A stretch of 64,000 nucleotides of DNA. It comes from a virus. Lineage: Duplodnaviria; Heunggongvirae; Uroviricota; Caudoviricetes. The position numbers and the translations under genes are program-made. Positions within the stretch are counted from its first letter, which is position 1. The number at the start of each line of letters is the position of its first letter. Below the pieces are notes generated by a model. It saw only the letters and a program-made list of their open reading frames with translations. It did no database searches and had not been told where the DNA came from. The DNA is taken from the IMG/VR virus record IMGVR_UViG_3300042885_000900; one strand, written 5' to 3'. This document shows positions 2,496 to 60,126 of this stretch, piece by piece.

Positions 2496-3341
2496 TTAAT
2501 TTTTATAATTCATAATTAAAATTTCTTCACCCATTGTTTGTACCTTACCCTTCTTAGCCGCAGCCGCTTTTGCAAATAATTTTCTCTCCCATTGATATTG
2601 ATTCTGAGGAAACCATACTTGTAATTGGGGAAAATCATAGTAAGACATCCCAAATTTACCCTTAACCCTTTTTAATGTGTTAGCTAATCTTTCGTGGTCT
2701 TTACTATCAAAGTCATGATTATTGTAATAGTTCTCTGTTTTCCAATATGGCGCATCCACATAATGAAACGTTTTATCAGAATCATATTTTAATATTAAAT
2801 CTTCAAAATCCATATTTTCAATATGAGTAATATTAAGAAAATATTCCACCCAATCAGGTTTAGATAATTTGTCTCGGAATGTTAGATATTTTGATTTATA
2901 CTTTCCTTTAAGGTCAATAAACGAACTTGTTTCAGGTTTAGAACCACTAAAAACTTGAGTAACCACATAAACATATTTCGCGGCGACTTCATAATTATAT
3001 TCACCAACATTAAACCCTTCTTTAAAAATTTCAGACTGAAATTTAATAAATTGTTCTTTACATATTTCTGGTGTAGGAAACACTCCTTTTTCTTGACAAG
3101 GGATTTTATTTATCTCCTCTAATAATCTTGAGGGATTTTTAATACACTGAAATAAATTATAATTTAACGGATTCAAATCATTATATACAATTTTTTTAAG
3201 ATTTGGATATTTACTTAAATCCATATTAAAATAACACCACATCATTCCACCGAAACTCTCGGTATATATTTCCATATCATTTGGATAATATTCTATTAAC
3301 CACTTACCTATTCTACTCTTACCACCAATCCAACTTAACAT
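2496..3341 (-). CDS. Dam-like (D12 class) N6-adenine DNA methyltransferase
   Basis: WIGGKS start, motif I ESFGG, YNDLN, catalytic DAPY; probable start at M24 (3341) rather than 3410. Confidence 0.85.
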   Translation of the reverse strand: MLSWIGGKSRIGKWLIEYYPNDMEIYTESFGGMMWCYFNMDLSKYPNLKKIVYNDLNPLNYNLFQCIKNPSRLLEEINKIPCQEKGVFPTPEICKEQFIKFQSEIFKEGFNVGEYNYEVAAKYVYVVTQVFSGSKPETSSFIDLKGKYKSKYLTFRDKLSKPDWVEYFLNITHIENMDFEDLILKYDSDKTFHYVDAPYWKTENYYNNHDFDSKDHERLANTLKRVKGKFGMSYYDFPQLQVWFPQNQYQWERKLFAKAAAAKKGKVQTMGEEILIMNYKN

Positions 3342-3345
3342 ATTA

Positions 3346-4110
3346 TTAAAATTTAAAATTATATTCTGATTCAGGATTTCTTGGAAATCTTGAAAGTTTA
3401 TTAAACGCAATATAACTCACGTATTTATTAAATGTAATTAAATTATTCTTTTTAATCAAATCACAAAATTCTTCTTTACTAACAAAATTATTTATAACCT
3501 CATTAAATTTATTTTTTTTTCTTTCTAAAAAAACAGTATCATCACTATATATAATATTTTTAAATTTAAAAACATCCGTCAAATTAGTTATTGATAATAT
3601 TTTTATTTTACCGGAAGAGTAAATGTTTAATTTATAAACACCATTGTCCGATAAAAACTTTTTCAATGAAATAATAAACCCCTCATTCCCCGCAATCGAG
3701 ACGTGATGCCATTTATTTTTAATCTTACTAATACACCCATCCCCGTCAAAATAACCCCTAACAAAATGTTTAATTAAATTAGGTTCAATATTGGGGAATA
3801 TTATTTTAAATGTTTTATTATTAACACAACCTAAATCAAATAATCTATTAACCAATAAATTTGAATAAACCGTTACCGAACAAAATTTAGATTTACCATC
3901 TATGCCGCATTTTATTGGCTTGTCACATTCTATATCTGTAAGAAATTTTTCAATATGGGGTTTATCAGTATCTTTTAATTTTAATTTTAACTCTCCACTT
4001 TTACCATCTTTCATTCTGGTATACCCATCCGCATATAAAAACCCTAACCAATATGACGACTTCTCATTTAACTCATCAAAAAAATGTTCATTAAAACTAT
4101 ATTTTCTCAT
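3346..4110 (-). CDS. Free-standing two-motif LAGLIDADG homing endonuclease
   Basis: YWLGFLYADG and FVRGYFDGDG motifs; short C-terminal extension (...FPRNPESEY). Confidence 0.88.
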   Translation of the reverse strand: MRKYSFNEHFFDELNEKSSYWLGFLYADGYTRMKDGKSGELKLKLKDTDKPHIEKFLTDIECDKPIKCGIDGKSKFCSVTVYSNLLVNRLFDLGCVNNKTFKIIFPNIEPNLIKHFVRGYFDGDGCISKIKNKWHHVSIAGNEGFIISLKKFLSDNGVYKLNIYSSGKIKILSITNLTDVFKFKNIIYSDDTVFLERKKNKFNEVINNFVSKEEFCDLIKKNNLITFNKYVSYIAFNKLSRFPRNPESEYNFKF

Positions 4111-4255
4111 AATACTCTTTAACTAATTTTTGGATAAACTTGGAAATACTAACCTCCTCGTTTTTCATTTTATCAAAAAGATATCGGTTAATACTTATTC
4201 CGTATTTAACTTTCTTATCTTCGTCATTTTTATTAGGTCGTCCAATCTTTCCCAT
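4097..4255 (-). CDS. 52-aa ribbon-helix-helix protein (not in ORF track)
   Basis: MGKIGRPNKNDEDKKVKYGISINRYLFDKMKNEEVSISKFIQKLVKEYYEKI; strand-helix-helix pattern; overlaps LAGLIDADG start by 14 nt; TATTTATA at 4260-4267. Confidence 0.72.
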   Translation of the reverse strand: MGKIGRPNKNDEDKKVKYGISINRYLFDKMKNEEVSISKFIQKLVKEYYEKI

Positions 4256-4259
4256 ATAT

Positions 4260-4267
4260 TATAAATA
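4260..4267 (-). promoter_or_regulatory. Putative late-promoter motif TATTTATA
   Basis: 4 nt from ATG 4255. Confidence 0.6.
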
Positions 4268-4346
4268 TCCCAAAGAATAGTAAAAGTGCGTTAAAAAGTG
4301 AAGTTTTTTTGAGAAAAAAATAGTTTTTCTTTTAAAATTTTTCCCC

Positions 4347-4376
4347 TATATTTGATATAAATTAATATTATTTATA
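4347..4376 (+). promoter_or_regulatory. -7-like TATATTTG (4347-4354) and TATTTATA (4369-4376)
   Basis: Both directly upstream of ATG 4376 on the coding strand. Confidence 0.5.
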
Positions 4377-4594
4377 TGGAAACAGTAGAAGGTCAGATTA
4401 TCGACGAAAAAGACATTAAAACAACAGAAAACATTAATCAAAATACAAAGGGTGAAAAAGCAGGTTGTAAATCTTGCAAAAAAAAAGGAATATCAAACAC
4501 CGATTGGCTTATGATAATCCTTTCATCTTATATTTTATTCTCATCAGTTTATGGTACTATAAAATTGATTAAAGAACTTATGTTGTTATTCTAA
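4376..4594 (+). CDS. Small membrane protein with CxxC (GCKSCKKK) and one C-terminal TM helix
   Basis: 72-aa ORF with hydrophobic WLMIILSSYILFSSVYGTI segment. Confidence 0.7.
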   Translation: METVEGQIIDEKDIKTTENINQNTKGEKAGCKSCKKKGISNTDWLMIILSSYILFSSVYGTIKLIKELMLLF

Positions 4595-7926: not shown

Positions 7927-9195
7927 TTATTGAGTCTTACCTTTGTAAGTAATTAGTGATTTCATTCTGTCAAACTCTTCTGATATTTGTTTTGATTGTT
8001 TAGGTTCTAACGACTCTAATTTAGCCATTAATTTAGACCCTTCATCTTCACCAGCATTATCATTAACAGTTGGTTGTGGAGCTTTATTGTAAGCTTTCTT
8101 TTTAATTTGACCCAATATATTCTTTTTCCTAATTGTATTTCGTTTTTTGTTAACATCGGATTCTCCAGTGTTAGCCCATTCCGGATTATTACCTGTTCTT
8201 GATGACCCCTCAATGTTATCTGTTATCCACTCTTCATTTGGATTTATTTCATCATACATTAAATTCTCTTGTCCTGCCGCTGTTAAATTATCAGTATACT
8301 CCTCAACAGCCCCTGATGGGATATAAGCCTTTTTATCCATTTTAGTTAACTCACCATTACCTTTTGGGAAAATTTTAGGTTCTGTAGTATAATCACCTTT
8401 AGAACCATCCTTTAGATATTCTTTCATTTTTTTTGTAACAGATTTAAGATAATCATCATTTTCTTTACCTGATTTTTTATGAATTTGAATTTGTTTATCT
8501 AAACCTTTAGGTGTACCCATAGATTTAATGTTTTTTTCTTTACTCTGTTCCATAATAACACTCTCAATTAACTCAATCATTTGACTTTCAGTTAATTTAA
8601 CAGACTCTTTGTGTTTACCCTCTTCACCCATCTCTAATTTTTTACTTTTTCTTAACATTTTAAAATCTTCAGTATCTAATCTATTGTTTTTATTTTTATC
8701 TAAAACTCTTTGATTCCCTTTTAAAGATTCACCCATCTCCGATTTTTTACTTTTTCTCAACATTTTAAAATCTTCAGTATCTAATCGGTTATTTTTATTT
8801 TTATCTAAAACTTTTTGATTTCCTTTTAAAGATTCATTAACATCAGTTCCACAAAATTTTTCAATTCTATCTTTGGGAGCGTTATTTTCTTTATGCCATT
8901 TACAAGCCTCTTCATCATAATCATAATTACCGTCGGAATCAACCTCACCTTCTTCTTCTTCAATATAGTCGAAAGATTGACTTTTTGGGAATTTTTTTGA
9001 AACATCGTAAATTCCTTCACCACACTCTGAACATTCTCCTTCATACATCATTCCACCACACTCACAAATATTAGATTCTTTCTCATCCATACTAGTTTTT
9101 ATTTTAGAGACTAAATTATCTGCTCTTTCTTCTAAAGTTTCATTTAAAATTTTAGACACTAAATTTTCTAAATAAGTCGTATTTAATTTTTTCAT
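7927..9195 (-). CDS. Putative internal head/scaffold-type protein with duplicated EF-hand-like repeat
   Basis: ILNE, LTESQMIELIESVIMEQ and ISEE motifs; CECGG...CSECG; DKNKNNRLDTEDF twice; TATTTATA at 9209-9216. Confidence 0.6.
   Translation of the reverse strand: MKKLNTTYLENLVSKILNETLEERADNLVSKIKTSMDEKESNICECGGMMYEGECSECGEGIYDVSKKFPKSQSFDYIEEEEGEVDSDGNYDYDEEACKWHKENNAPKDRIEKFCGTDVNESLKGNQKVLDKNKNNRLDTEDFKMLRKSKKSEMGESLKGNQRVLDKNKNNRLDTEDFKMLRKSKKLEMGEEGKHKESVKLTESQMIELIESVIMEQSKEKNIKSMGTPKGLDKQIQIHKKSGKENDDYLKSVTKKMKEYLKDGSKGDYTTEPKIFPKGNGELTKMDKKAYIPSGAVEEYTDNLTAAGQENLMYDEINPNEEWITDNIEGSSRTGNNPEWANTGESDVNKKRNTIRKKNILGQIKKKAYNKAPQPTVNDNAGEDEGSKLMAKLESLEPKQSKQISEEFDRMKSLITYKGKTQ
8626..8835 (-). 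repeat. 105-nt (35-aa) tandem duplication
   Basis: ESLKGNQ(K/R)VLDKNKNNRLDTEDFKMLRKSKK(S/L)EMG twice. Confidence 0.92.
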
Positions 9196-9208: not shown

Positions 9209-9216
9209 TATAAATA
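9209..9216 (-). promoter_or_regulatory. Putative late-promoter motif TATTTATA
   Basis: 13 nt upstream of ATG 9195, followed by an A-rich leader. Confidence 0.6.
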
Positions 9217-9218
9217 TA

Positions 9219-21318: not shown

Positions 21319-21939
21319 TTATATTATTTTATCTCGTTTAATTATATTCTCAATAGCCCATAAAGGTTGTAAATTAGTATAATGACATAATTTTTTTAAT
21401 TCATCATCATTTTTAGCGGATGATAATGGAATAATATGGTCAATATGCCAACCAAATAATCCGTGATTCTCCCAACACATACCATCTTTAAATTGTTTTT
21501 CCAAATAACTTTTTAATTCTGAAGGTGAACAACCAATTAAATCAAAGGTGGATTCTCTATTACTACCCAAAATTTTATTTGTCTTACTTCTATACAACAT
21601 TTTTAATTTTAAGATAGGGTCATCTTTTTTTCGTTGAACCATTTTTGAGTTAATAAAATCTCTATTCCTTTCAACATAATCTTTTTTATATTGTTCAACT
21701 TTATCTTTATTATTATTCCCCCAAATTTTAACTCTATCAATAATTATTTTTTGATTTTCAATGTAATATTCTTTAGATTTTTCTAATATTTTTTCTTTAT
21801 TATCAATATAATATTGTTTTTTATATTCTTTAACACAAACTTTACAATTGTCCTGTAAACCATCCTTAGAACTTTTATTTTTATTAAAATCAAATAATGA
21901 TTTATCTACCGAACATTTTTTACAAATTTTCTTTTTCAA
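21319..21939 (-). CDS. HNH homing endonuclease with N-terminal CxxC...CxxC finger (TTG start)
   Basis: CKKC...NCKVC; WHIDHIIPLS...HYTNLQPLWAIEN. Confidence 0.87.
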   Translation of the reverse strand: MKKKICKKCSVDKSLFDFNKNKSSKDGLQDNCKVCVKEYKKQYYIDNKEKILEKSKEYYIENQKIIIDRVKIWGNNNKDKVEQYKKDYVERNRDFINSKMVQRKKDDPILKLKMLYRSKTNKILGSNRESTFDLIGCSPSELKSYLEKQFKDGMCWENHGLFGWHIDHIIPLSSAKNDDELKKLCHYTNLQPLWAIENIIKRDKII

Positions 21940-22082: not shown

Positions 22083-22090
22083 TATAAATA
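22083..22090 (-). promoter_or_regulatory. Putative late-promoter motif TATTTATA
   Basis: 4 nt from ATG 22078. Confidence 0.6.
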
Positions 22091-22130
22091 TCATAGTTTT
22101 TAGTAAAGTTGTTATTTTTAACAATTTTAT

Positions 22131-27206: not shown

Positions 27207-27248
27207 TTTGAATATACAAAACAAAACAAAATAAATTAATAATCACAA

Positions 27249-27256
27249 TATTTATA
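27249..27256 (+). promoter_or_regulatory. Putative late-promoter motif TATTTATA
   Basis: 4 nt before ATG 27261. Confidence 0.6.
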
Positions 27257-49468: not shown

Positions 49469-49476
49469 TATAAATA
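49469..49476 (-). promoter_or_regulatory. Putative late-promoter motif TATTTATA
   Basis: 3 nt before ATG 49465. Confidence 0.62.
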
Positions 49477-49515
49477 TAATGCCACAATTATTTCTAATAA
49501 ATACCCCAAAATAAA

Positions 49516-53658: not shown

Positions 53659-53702
53659 ATTTGTTTTTATTATAAATATACAACTTTTTAATAAAAACAA
53701 AT
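53659..53702 (-). promoter_or_regulatory. 14-bp inverted repeat with TATTTATA in its loop, occluding the GIY-YIG leader
   Basis: ATTTGTTTTTATTA (53659-53672) / TAATAAAAACAAAT (53689-53702); motif at 53671-53678. Confidence 0.72.
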
Positions 53703-58151: not shown

Positions 58152-58210
58152 AATAATTTCTTTTATATATAAATATATCAAGTCTGTTAAAAAGGTAGGA
58201 AAATGTTATT
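58134..58210 (-). promoter_or_regulatory. 14-bp inverted repeat enclosing TATTTATA and the HNH start codon
   Basis: aataacattttcct (58134-58147) / aggaaaatgttatt (58197-58210); motif at 58168-58175. Confidence 0.68.
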
Positions 58211-60091: not shown

Positions 60092-60099
60092 TATAAATA
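60092..60099 (-). promoter_or_regulatory. Putative late-promoter motif TATTTATA
   Basis: 11 nt upstream of ATG 60080. Confidence 0.6.
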
Positions 60100-60126
60100 T
60101 CATTTAATTGTGAAAAATTTAATCTT

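Follow-up and report, generated by a model that had tools for sequence, protein, structure and literature searches.

In the plasmid pMV158, copG and repB are co-transcribed and the operator of CopG lies over the -35 element (PMC2724298). The ribbon-helix-helix (RHH) protein Arc represses the nuclease/transposase promoter of IS605 elements (bioRxiv 10.64898/2026.09.24.754181). Among phage homing endonucleases, I-TevI is autorepressing and the overlap of nrdA and mobE may act by translational coupling (PMC2988022). By what means a phage is protected from the free-standing homing endonucleases that it carries is a recognized gap in knowledge. Here, a stretch of 64,000 nucleotides (the window) from a virus of the Caudoviricetes (IMG/VR record IMGVR_UViG_3300042885_000900) was analyzed. 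It contains two cassettes in which a microgene encoding an RHH protein overlaps a homing endonuclease gene, of the LAGLIDADG family in cassette 1 and of the HNH family in cassette 2 (Table 1). With a probability of about 0.6, such a cassette is a self-contained mobile homing-endonuclease unit that is autorepressed, co-transcribed and translationally coupled. A full-text search, in a library that is itself incomplete, returned no paper on phages in which an RHH gene accompanies free-standing homing endonucleases.

The cassettes share features with four described systems. As in CopG-RepB, an RHH dimer of ~45–50 aa is the product of the first gene, which would be co-transcribed with the downstream gene, and the candidate operator overlaps the -35 region of a single promoter. 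In pMV158, however, the carrier is a plasmid, the downstream gene encodes a replication initiator and operator binding is demonstrated, whereas the present cassettes reside in a phage, carry a homing endonuclease and have a putative binding site. Like the Arc protein of IS605 elements, the phage RHH protein is of microprotein size, is located inside a selfish element, is of a kind often missed by annotation and overlaps a neighboring gene. It would also act on the promoter of the nuclease of its element, as Arc does on that of TnpB, which acts as a homing nuclease. Unlike IS605, a transposon with an RNA-guided nuclease, the phage cassette encodes a protein-only, free-standing homing endonuclease. 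The two RHH families are distinct and the sole link between them is a weak PHROG match of the window protein to 'Arc-like repressor' (E 0.03).

In T4, the expression of I-TevI and of the seg and mob endonucleases is held down at their own promoters and by translational devices (PMC2988022), but there the nuclease itself represses or RNA hairpins sequester the ribosome binding site. For the present phage, the proposed repressor is the product of a separate and dedicated gene, and a search for a hairpin gave none. Type II toxin-antitoxin systems (CcdA, ParD, RelB, BrnA) share the layout of a small RHH gene that is overlapped by the following gene, which encodes a harmful enzyme; the promoter is expected to be autoregulated in both, and the Pfam matches of the phage family include such antitoxins. 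In contrast to these systems, the phage RHH proteins have no toxin-binding tail, their partners are DNA homing nucleases of three folds, and the unit is passed on as a cassette that occurs sporadically, at particular intergenic sites of phage genomes.

The RHH gene of cassette 1 is absent from the annotation track and had been noticed in an initial annotation, which was made from the letters of the sequence. The coordinates of this 52-codon open reading frame (ORF) and its last codons TAT GAG AAA ATA TAG, which enclose the nuclease ATG (4110), were confirmed. A word-indexed search yielded 375 homologues of 28–91 aa, and the best 120 of these 375 are mostly 77–100% identical. In an exhaustive profile search the family comprised 316 clusters at 50% identity; among the best 150 of the 316, almost all are 45–85 aa long. 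Copies of subfamily type A, to which cassette 1 belongs, have ratios of nonsynonymous to synonymous substitution (dN/dS) of 0.03–0.21 at saturated synonymous sites (proportion of synonymous differences, pS, 0.4–0.9). Because of the number of homologues and clusters and the low dN/dS at saturated sites, the small ORF is, as judged by its conservation, a real protein gene under purifying selection, well beyond a chance open frame.

The RHH fold that had been proposed for this protein is borne out at the level of the family. Among 91 diverse members, Pfam matches were obtained to CcdA (41), RHH_3 (32), RHH_1 (19) and BrnA_antitoxin (14), with a best E of ~1e-5. All four are ribbon-helix-helix families. 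The neighbors of the protein in a language-model Atlas are CcdA/CopG clusters. In the AlphaFold2 model of the monomer both helices are present (residues 24–32 and 37–50) and the predicted local distance difference test score (pLDDT) is 79. The homodimer model reached an ipSAE of 0.44, compared with 0.00 for the best control, and passed a mark that is attained by 20 of 30 solved homodimers and by one of 23 solved monomers. At least 87% of the contacts agree between the dimer runs and the pLDDT of the partner is at least 69. The contacts 19-19, 20-18, 16-22, 41-41 and 44-44 correspond to an antiparallel intermolecular ribbon, formed by strand 16–22 with its alternating residues, and to packing of helix B. 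This model is a prediction whose pass may partly reflect likeness to, or memory of, solved RHH dimers, and it supports the fold rather than demonstrating binding. An invariant alignment column is found at Ser38, and a G-x-S turn precedes helix B in many members. The proteins are 50–55 aa long and end at helix B; they consist of an RHH core of ~45 residues and a basic arm, with no C-terminal toxin-binding extension. By profile match, strand-helix-helix topology and predicted ribbon of the homodimer, the 52-aa protein is assigned to the ribbon-helix-helix (MetJ/Arc/CopG) superfamily.

Profile searches also agree with the initial assignment of the downstream gene of cassette 1 to the LAGLIDADG family (Pfam LAGLIDADG_3, E 5e-7; phrog_4645, E 1e-42). 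Both motifs are intact in the single chain, LGFLYADG at residues 22–29 (Asp28) and VRGYFDGDG at residues 117–125 (Asp124), and the first 90 positions of the phrog_4645 profile have no counterpart in the protein. The HNH protein of cassette 2 has an N-terminal CxxC zinc-finger-like region and an HIDH...N...N motif. A phmmer search with both window nucleases against the PDB sequences gave nothing at E <= 0.01. At 21937–21939 the HNH gene of the window starts with TTG (AAA TTT GAA), whereas its orthologues start with ATG (AAA AAT GGA); this may weaken initiation.

To what extent RHH genes adjoin nucleases was seen in IMG/VR, which was scanned with the alignment of the RHH family. The scan gave 43 loci on further viral contigs, 41 of them with a complete downstream ORF. 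This ORF encodes a nuclease in 38 of the 41 loci. The 41 products are 25 HNH proteins of the cassette 2 family, ten LAGLIDADG proteins, three NUMOD3/TnsA-like proteins, two intein-containing C5 methyltransferases and one FEN-type exonuclease, the latter behind an HNH remnant. The 3' end of the RHH gene is overlapped by 11–32 nt in 39 of the 41 loci, always by 2 modulo 3 and hence with one relative frame throughout. The conserved Tyr-Tyr codons at the end of helix B contain the nuclease ATG in most cassettes; one subfamily has a GAT GGA (Asp-Gly) pair instead. In the related genomes G003 and G005, all five detected RHH copies (L049–L053) are positioned just upstream of a LAGLIDADG or HNH ORF and overlap it. 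Fused RHH-nuclease proteins were found neither among the best 150 of the 316 hits nor in a search for longer proteins. Judged by the overlap, the pairing and the second cassette, the two-gene module that had been suggested for a single locus is real and general.

Nucleases lacking an RHH gene were also found in the same phage group (Table 1). Three of the four have N-terminal extensions of 55–120 residues resembling helix-turn-helix (HTH) domains and in one, an HNH protein, the zinc-finger region is duplicated. These cases point to two alternative architectures for the homing endonucleases of the group. Some of the cassettes have lost their nuclease in part. The HNH gene is split in L073 (2637-3243) and truncated to remnants in L091 (2643-2768) and L092 (2643-2804), with an intact RHH gene upstream in each. 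In L081 (322-2457) and L085 (2703-4781), a type-C RHH gene directly precedes a C5 cytosine methyltransferase containing an intein splicing domain. The methyltransferase ORF of L081 opens with the residues METK, which are typical of the HNH genes, as though a nuclease had been deleted.

The region upstream of the cassettes contains a promoter-like arrangement. A box containing CTTT is common to all cassettes, and in 39 of 49 tabulated cassettes its distance to the ATG downstream is 28–34 nt (mostly 29–32 nt); additionally, ATATTTAT is found 3–5 nt before the ATG in all of them. The bases just 5' of the CTTT box differ between the RHH subfamilies, and the boxes track the β-strand sequence of the subfamily. 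In type A, ACGCACTTT is invariant in 13 of 13 cassettes; the sequence further upstream is unrelated and the synonymous sites are saturated. A CACTTTT direct repeat (4294–4300) lies 12 nt upstream of the ACGCACTTTT box of cassette 1. Most type-B and type-B' cassettes have AAAGT-N3-ACTTT or a one-base variant of it. The central triplet of type B is inverted between copies (GAA or TTC; ATA or TAT) with retention of the arms, as would be expected for a site that is read by a dimer. The box of cassette 2 (type D) is a perfect palindrome, and its L053 orthologue reads TTGTTAA-AA-TTAACAA. Exact matches to ACGCACTTTT and to the box of cassette 2 are unique in the window, and the combination of box and promoter was found only at cassettes. 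The few other ACGCACTTTT sites, in related genomes lacking the RHH gene, lie within coding DNA and have no promoter context.

The initial annotation had pointed to TATTTATA at 4 nt before the RHH ATG. Its position is correct (4260–4267, with the ATG at 4255), but a significance specific to the cassette does not hold, as ATATTTATA is a general promoter-like element. The window contains 12 copies of ATATTTATA, close to the expectation from base composition, and 11 of the 12 are in sense orientation 3–17 nt upstream of an ORF start. At least ten other window genes are preceded by it, at 10–17 nt from the ATG. Examples are located at 2406–2414, 9209–9217, 27248–27256, 49469–49477, 53671–53679, 58168–58176 and 60092–60100, often with a CTTTT box ~15 nt further upstream. 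As a box found upstream of many genes, ATATTTATA was rejected as the RHH operator, and ACGCACTTTT (4282–4291) is a better operator candidate than TATTTATA.

A Shine-Dalgarno-like core precedes only three of 44 window genes, so translation in this phage is independent of such cores. Since ATATTTATA ends 4 nt before the RHH start, the mRNA of the cassette is probably leaderless or nearly so. Given the scarcity of Shine-Dalgarno-like cores in the window, initiation at the internal start of the nuclease gene most plausibly depends on translation of the upstream frame. No significant RNA structure was predicted around the nuclease start (z-scores -1.3, 0.1, -1.9 and -0.9), and a hairpin sequestering this start is unsupported. 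The ATATTTATA elements as a class look like phage promoters with short A-rich leaders, as in translation of the Bacteroidota type.

Close relatives differ in the presence of the cassettes, whose distribution is sporadic. Cassette 1 is absent from the nearest relatives, L011 and L012, in which the divergent 72-aa gene is followed straight by the methyltransferase gene. The flanking DNA of these two is 91–93% identical to the window; homology ends at window position 4322 and restarts at 3065. The cassette is present in L009, L015 and L055–L065. Cassette 2 is missing from the nearest relative G001, which has a 68-aa ORF at the site and contains one HNH gene without an RHH gene. The complete genome G004 has neither the RHH genes nor these nucleases. 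The methyltransferase of the window is 42–56% identical to that of L011 over the first 120 residues and 96% identical in the last 40–60 residues; its first 60 residues are 82–96% identical to those of the distant relative L021. This mosaicism fits recombination tracts beside a homing site. The allele types of the methyltransferase do not follow the presence of the cassette. Sporadic occurrence at a fixed intergenic site with disturbed flanks, as in free-standing LAGLIDADG homing endonucleases, was found for cassette 1. Cassette 1 took the place of the native promoter of the methyltransferase gene, which is probably co-transcribed with the cassette.

Every RHH subfamily is tied to one genomic locus. 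The type-A locus is constant in its order of DnaJ ... RHH, nuclease, Dam methyltransferase and leucine-rich repeat protein, and its nuclease comes from one of three LAGLIDADG lineages or from one HNH lineage. The other RHH subfamilies adjoin genes for DNA polymerase B, a FEN-type exonuclease, SbcD and HtrL-like proteins.

These observations are best explained by a cassette composed, in this order, of a promoter with a -35-like ACTTT and a -10-like ATATTTATA nearly abutting the start, a gene for a dimeric RHH protein and a nuclease gene whose ATG lies inside the last RHH codons. Both genes would be carried on one transcript. With neither a leader nor a Shine-Dalgarno sequence of its own, the nuclease would be made in small amounts by ribosomes completing or reading the RHH frame. 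The RHH dimer would bind the subfamily-specific bases over the -35-like box, which in cassette 1 is the putative operator ACGCACTTTT, and silence its own promoter. Such negative feedback would keep the DNA-cutting enzyme low and buffered. In cassette 1 the same feedback would extend to the Dam-like methyltransferase that depends on the cassette promoter. We infer repression, binding of the box, co-transcription, translational coupling and the activity of the nuclease. The initial idea of a repressor-plus-nuclease module is supported by the RHH fold, the purifying selection and the adjacency to nucleases, and the module may well serve repression and control of toxicity.

Several results weigh against this explanation. 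Common descent confounds the correspondence of box and RHH subfamily, as each subfamily occupies a single genomic locus. The type-A box is not palindromic and forms a 12-nt direct repeat at best. In a single-sequence Pfam search, the 52-aa protein of the window alone gave no significant match to an RHH model. Against solved structures the protein scored weakly, with SvtR as the first match both by sequence (E 1.1) and by Foldseek fold (E 4.4); the other PDB profile and Foldseek matches are NikR (E 1.6) and spurious PPR-repeat proteins. A tblastn search of the RHH protein against GenBank phages gave chance matches only, to NrdA (E ~3–4). The window and four related records together contain 11 nucleases of these two families, and four of the 11 have no RHH gene; therefore, the repressor is not obligatory. 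Furthermore, the identity of the RHH protein (81–87%) exceeds that of every neighbor including the nuclease (33–63%). Conservation beyond that of the nuclease and the flanks hints at a role past the damping of one particular nuclease, and because of it two further functions stay alive, one in targeting or in trans and the other in driving the gene resident downstream.

The RHH protein could be a sequence-specific targeting or anchoring subunit, which binds near the homing site and supplies the choice of site. This would explain the interchangeable nuclease folds at one locus: type-A RHH proteins (73–100% identical) are always found at the Dam-methyltransferase locus while the nuclease varies. 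RHH-less nucleases of relatives bear their HTH-like extensions instead, and the LAGLIDADG protein of the window is without the N-terminal part of its profile. However, the invariant ACGCAC box is missing from the empty sites of L011, L012, L016 and L021, and where RHH-less genomes have a copy of the box, it is part of coding DNA and has no promoter context. A LAGLIDADG core needs no help to read a long site, and in L009, L064 and L065 the RHH gene is combined with a LAGLIDADG protein that has a long N-terminal extension of its own. It is improbable that three unrelated folds would offer one docking surface in common, and a targeting subunit is judged unlikely. A wider proposal is equally doubtful: the RHH module could be a portable, locus-specific adaptor of promoter, operator, DNA-binding protein and fixed start codon, with unrelated nuclease folds swapped at the same ATG, in which the RHH protein also supplies site recognition or silences rival cassettes with the same operator in trans during co-infection. 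Rather improbable is control directed mainly at the resident gene that follows the cassette (here the Dam-like methyltransferase; elsewhere FEN, DNA polymerase neighbors and others), whose native promoter was severed by the insertion, with the nuclease as a passenger of the operon. The replaced promoter and the close spacing of nuclease stop and methyltransferase start agree with it, as do the loci with an intact RHH gene and a decayed or missing nuclease (L073, L091 and L092; L081 and L085 before the C5 methyltransferase). Against it, no dependent operon follows cassette 2 or the type-B cassettes, where the next genes are small or convergent, and the nuclease is still present behind 38 of 41 RHH genes. 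Moreover, the RHH protein would still be an autorepressor of the same promoter, so resident-gene control extends autorepression of the cassette rather than replacing it.

The type II antitoxin analogy drawn in the initial annotation implies that the RHH protein, besides binding DNA, neutralizes the nuclease by direct binding and confers immunity. The gene order with the small RHH gene first and an overlapping toxic enzyme second, and the antitoxin families CcdA and BrnA among the best Pfam matches, are in favor of it. At the protein-protein level the analogy fails: the Pfam matches span the DNA-binding part of the RHH protein only, a C-terminal toxin-binding extension is absent, and one subfamily pairs with unrelated folds, three in all, rather than with a single cognate toxin family. 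Immunity by direct binding is very improbable. Cassette 1 also resembles a restriction-modification operon of controller, endonuclease and methyltransferase, an order that is kept in all type-A loci examined (11 from IMG/VR, L009, L015 and the window). However, the methyltransferase occurs alone in L011, L012, L016–L019 and L021, so that the genes are not co-inherited, and unrelated nuclease folds are swapped beside the same methyltransferase. LAGLIDADG is not known as a restriction-enzyme fold. Because the cassettes of other subfamilies are located beside SbcD, DNA polymerase B, FEN and HtrL-like genes and not beside a methyltransferase, a restriction-modification operon is rejected as a general explanation, and for cassette 1 itself it is highly improbable. 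Finally, the nuclease lies in the same +1 frame in 39 of 39 overlaps, as it would if a fusion protein were made by programmed +1 frameshifting. This constancy follows from the position of the nuclease ATG in the conserved TAT TAT G. The overlaps vary in their last sense codon (ATA, TTG, AAC, AAG) and have no conserved slippery site in common, and neither stimulatory RNA structure (z-scores -1.9 to +0.1) nor fused genes were found in the searches described above; frameshift fusion is the least probable of these explanations and was rejected.

An autorepressed nuclease cassette would offer a simple, widespread and testable answer to the restraint of homing endonucleases in one large environmental phage group, namely a dedicated microprotein repressor that is combined with at least three nuclease folds and with compact candidate operators. 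The analysis flags a family of ~50-aa genes that was missed here by the annotation track, and the RHH gene may serve as a marker for mobile nuclease cassettes in metagenomes. Small orthogonal repressor/operator pairs and new LAGLIDADG and HNH enzymes are potential tools.

Table 1. Positions of the cassette features in the window and of related nuclease genes without an RHH gene (preceded by the label of their locus).
Feature	Position	Strand	Remarks
D12-class (Dam-like) adenine methyltransferase	2496..3341	(-)	start 4 nt past nuclease stop; mosaic
LAGLIDADG homing endonuclease, cassette 1, 254 aa	3346..4110	(-)	free-standing, double-motif; motif 1 at 4024-4047, motif 2 at 3736-3762
RHH/nuclease overlap, cassette 1, 14 nt	4097..4110	(-)	nuclease ATG within conserved Tyr-Tyr codons (TAT TAT G) ending RHH helix B
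RHH microgene, cassette 1, 52 aa	4097..4255	(-)	GRP-containing basic arm, strand ~16-22, helix A 24-32, helix B 37-50
ATATTTATA, -10-like promoter element, cassette 1	4260..4268	(-)	ends 4 nt before RHH start
ACGCACTTTT box, candidate RHH operator, cassette 1	4282..4291	(-)	overlaps -35-like ACTTT element of the promoter
HNH endonuclease, cassette 2, 206 aa	21319..21939	(-)	TTG start; 20-nt overlap with RHH gene; phrog_1035 E 1e-20
RHH microgene, cassette 2, 52 aa	21920..22078	(-)	31% identical to RHH protein of cassette 1
ATATTTATA element, cassette 2	22083..22091	(-)	4 nt before ATG
Candidate operator, cassette 2	22109..22124	(-)	perfect palindrome TTGTTA-AAAA-TAACAA; abuts -35-like CTTTA box
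RHH-less homing endonuclease, same phage group	L104:588-1322	(-)	
RHH-less homing endonuclease, same phage group	L106:530-1489	(-)	
RHH-less homing endonuclease, same phage group	L051:238-1035	(-)	
RHH-less homing endonuclease, same phage group	L105:493-1578	(-)	

The window has a G+C content of 30% and encodes a baseplate wedge protein, a DnaB-like helicase, NrdA and SbcC/SbcD-like proteins; a tRNA search across it found zero tRNAs. The closest relatives found are viral contigs of ~320 kb from lake metagenomes. On account of the encoded proteins and these relatives, the window is regarded as a portion of the genome of a freshwater jumbo myophage of ~320 kb.

Next to cassette 1, an ORF of 72 aa on the (+) strand (4376–4594) is divergent from the cassette and encodes a CxxC motif and a C-terminal hydrophobic helix. 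It is kept in relatives at 29–92% identity, and the insertion site has its fixed left border here. The nearest relative shows a further indel in an intergenic site close by, in which ~620 nt between the SbcD-like gene and its upstream neighbor (G001:C1:104789-105409) are missing from the window. Within the ORF at 7927–9195, which encodes a 422-aa protein, the region 8623–8835 on the (-) strand consists of tandem copies of ~105 nt with the repeated peptide ESLKGNQ.VLDKNKNNRLDTEDFKMLRKSKK, and the alignment of these copies varies among relatives.

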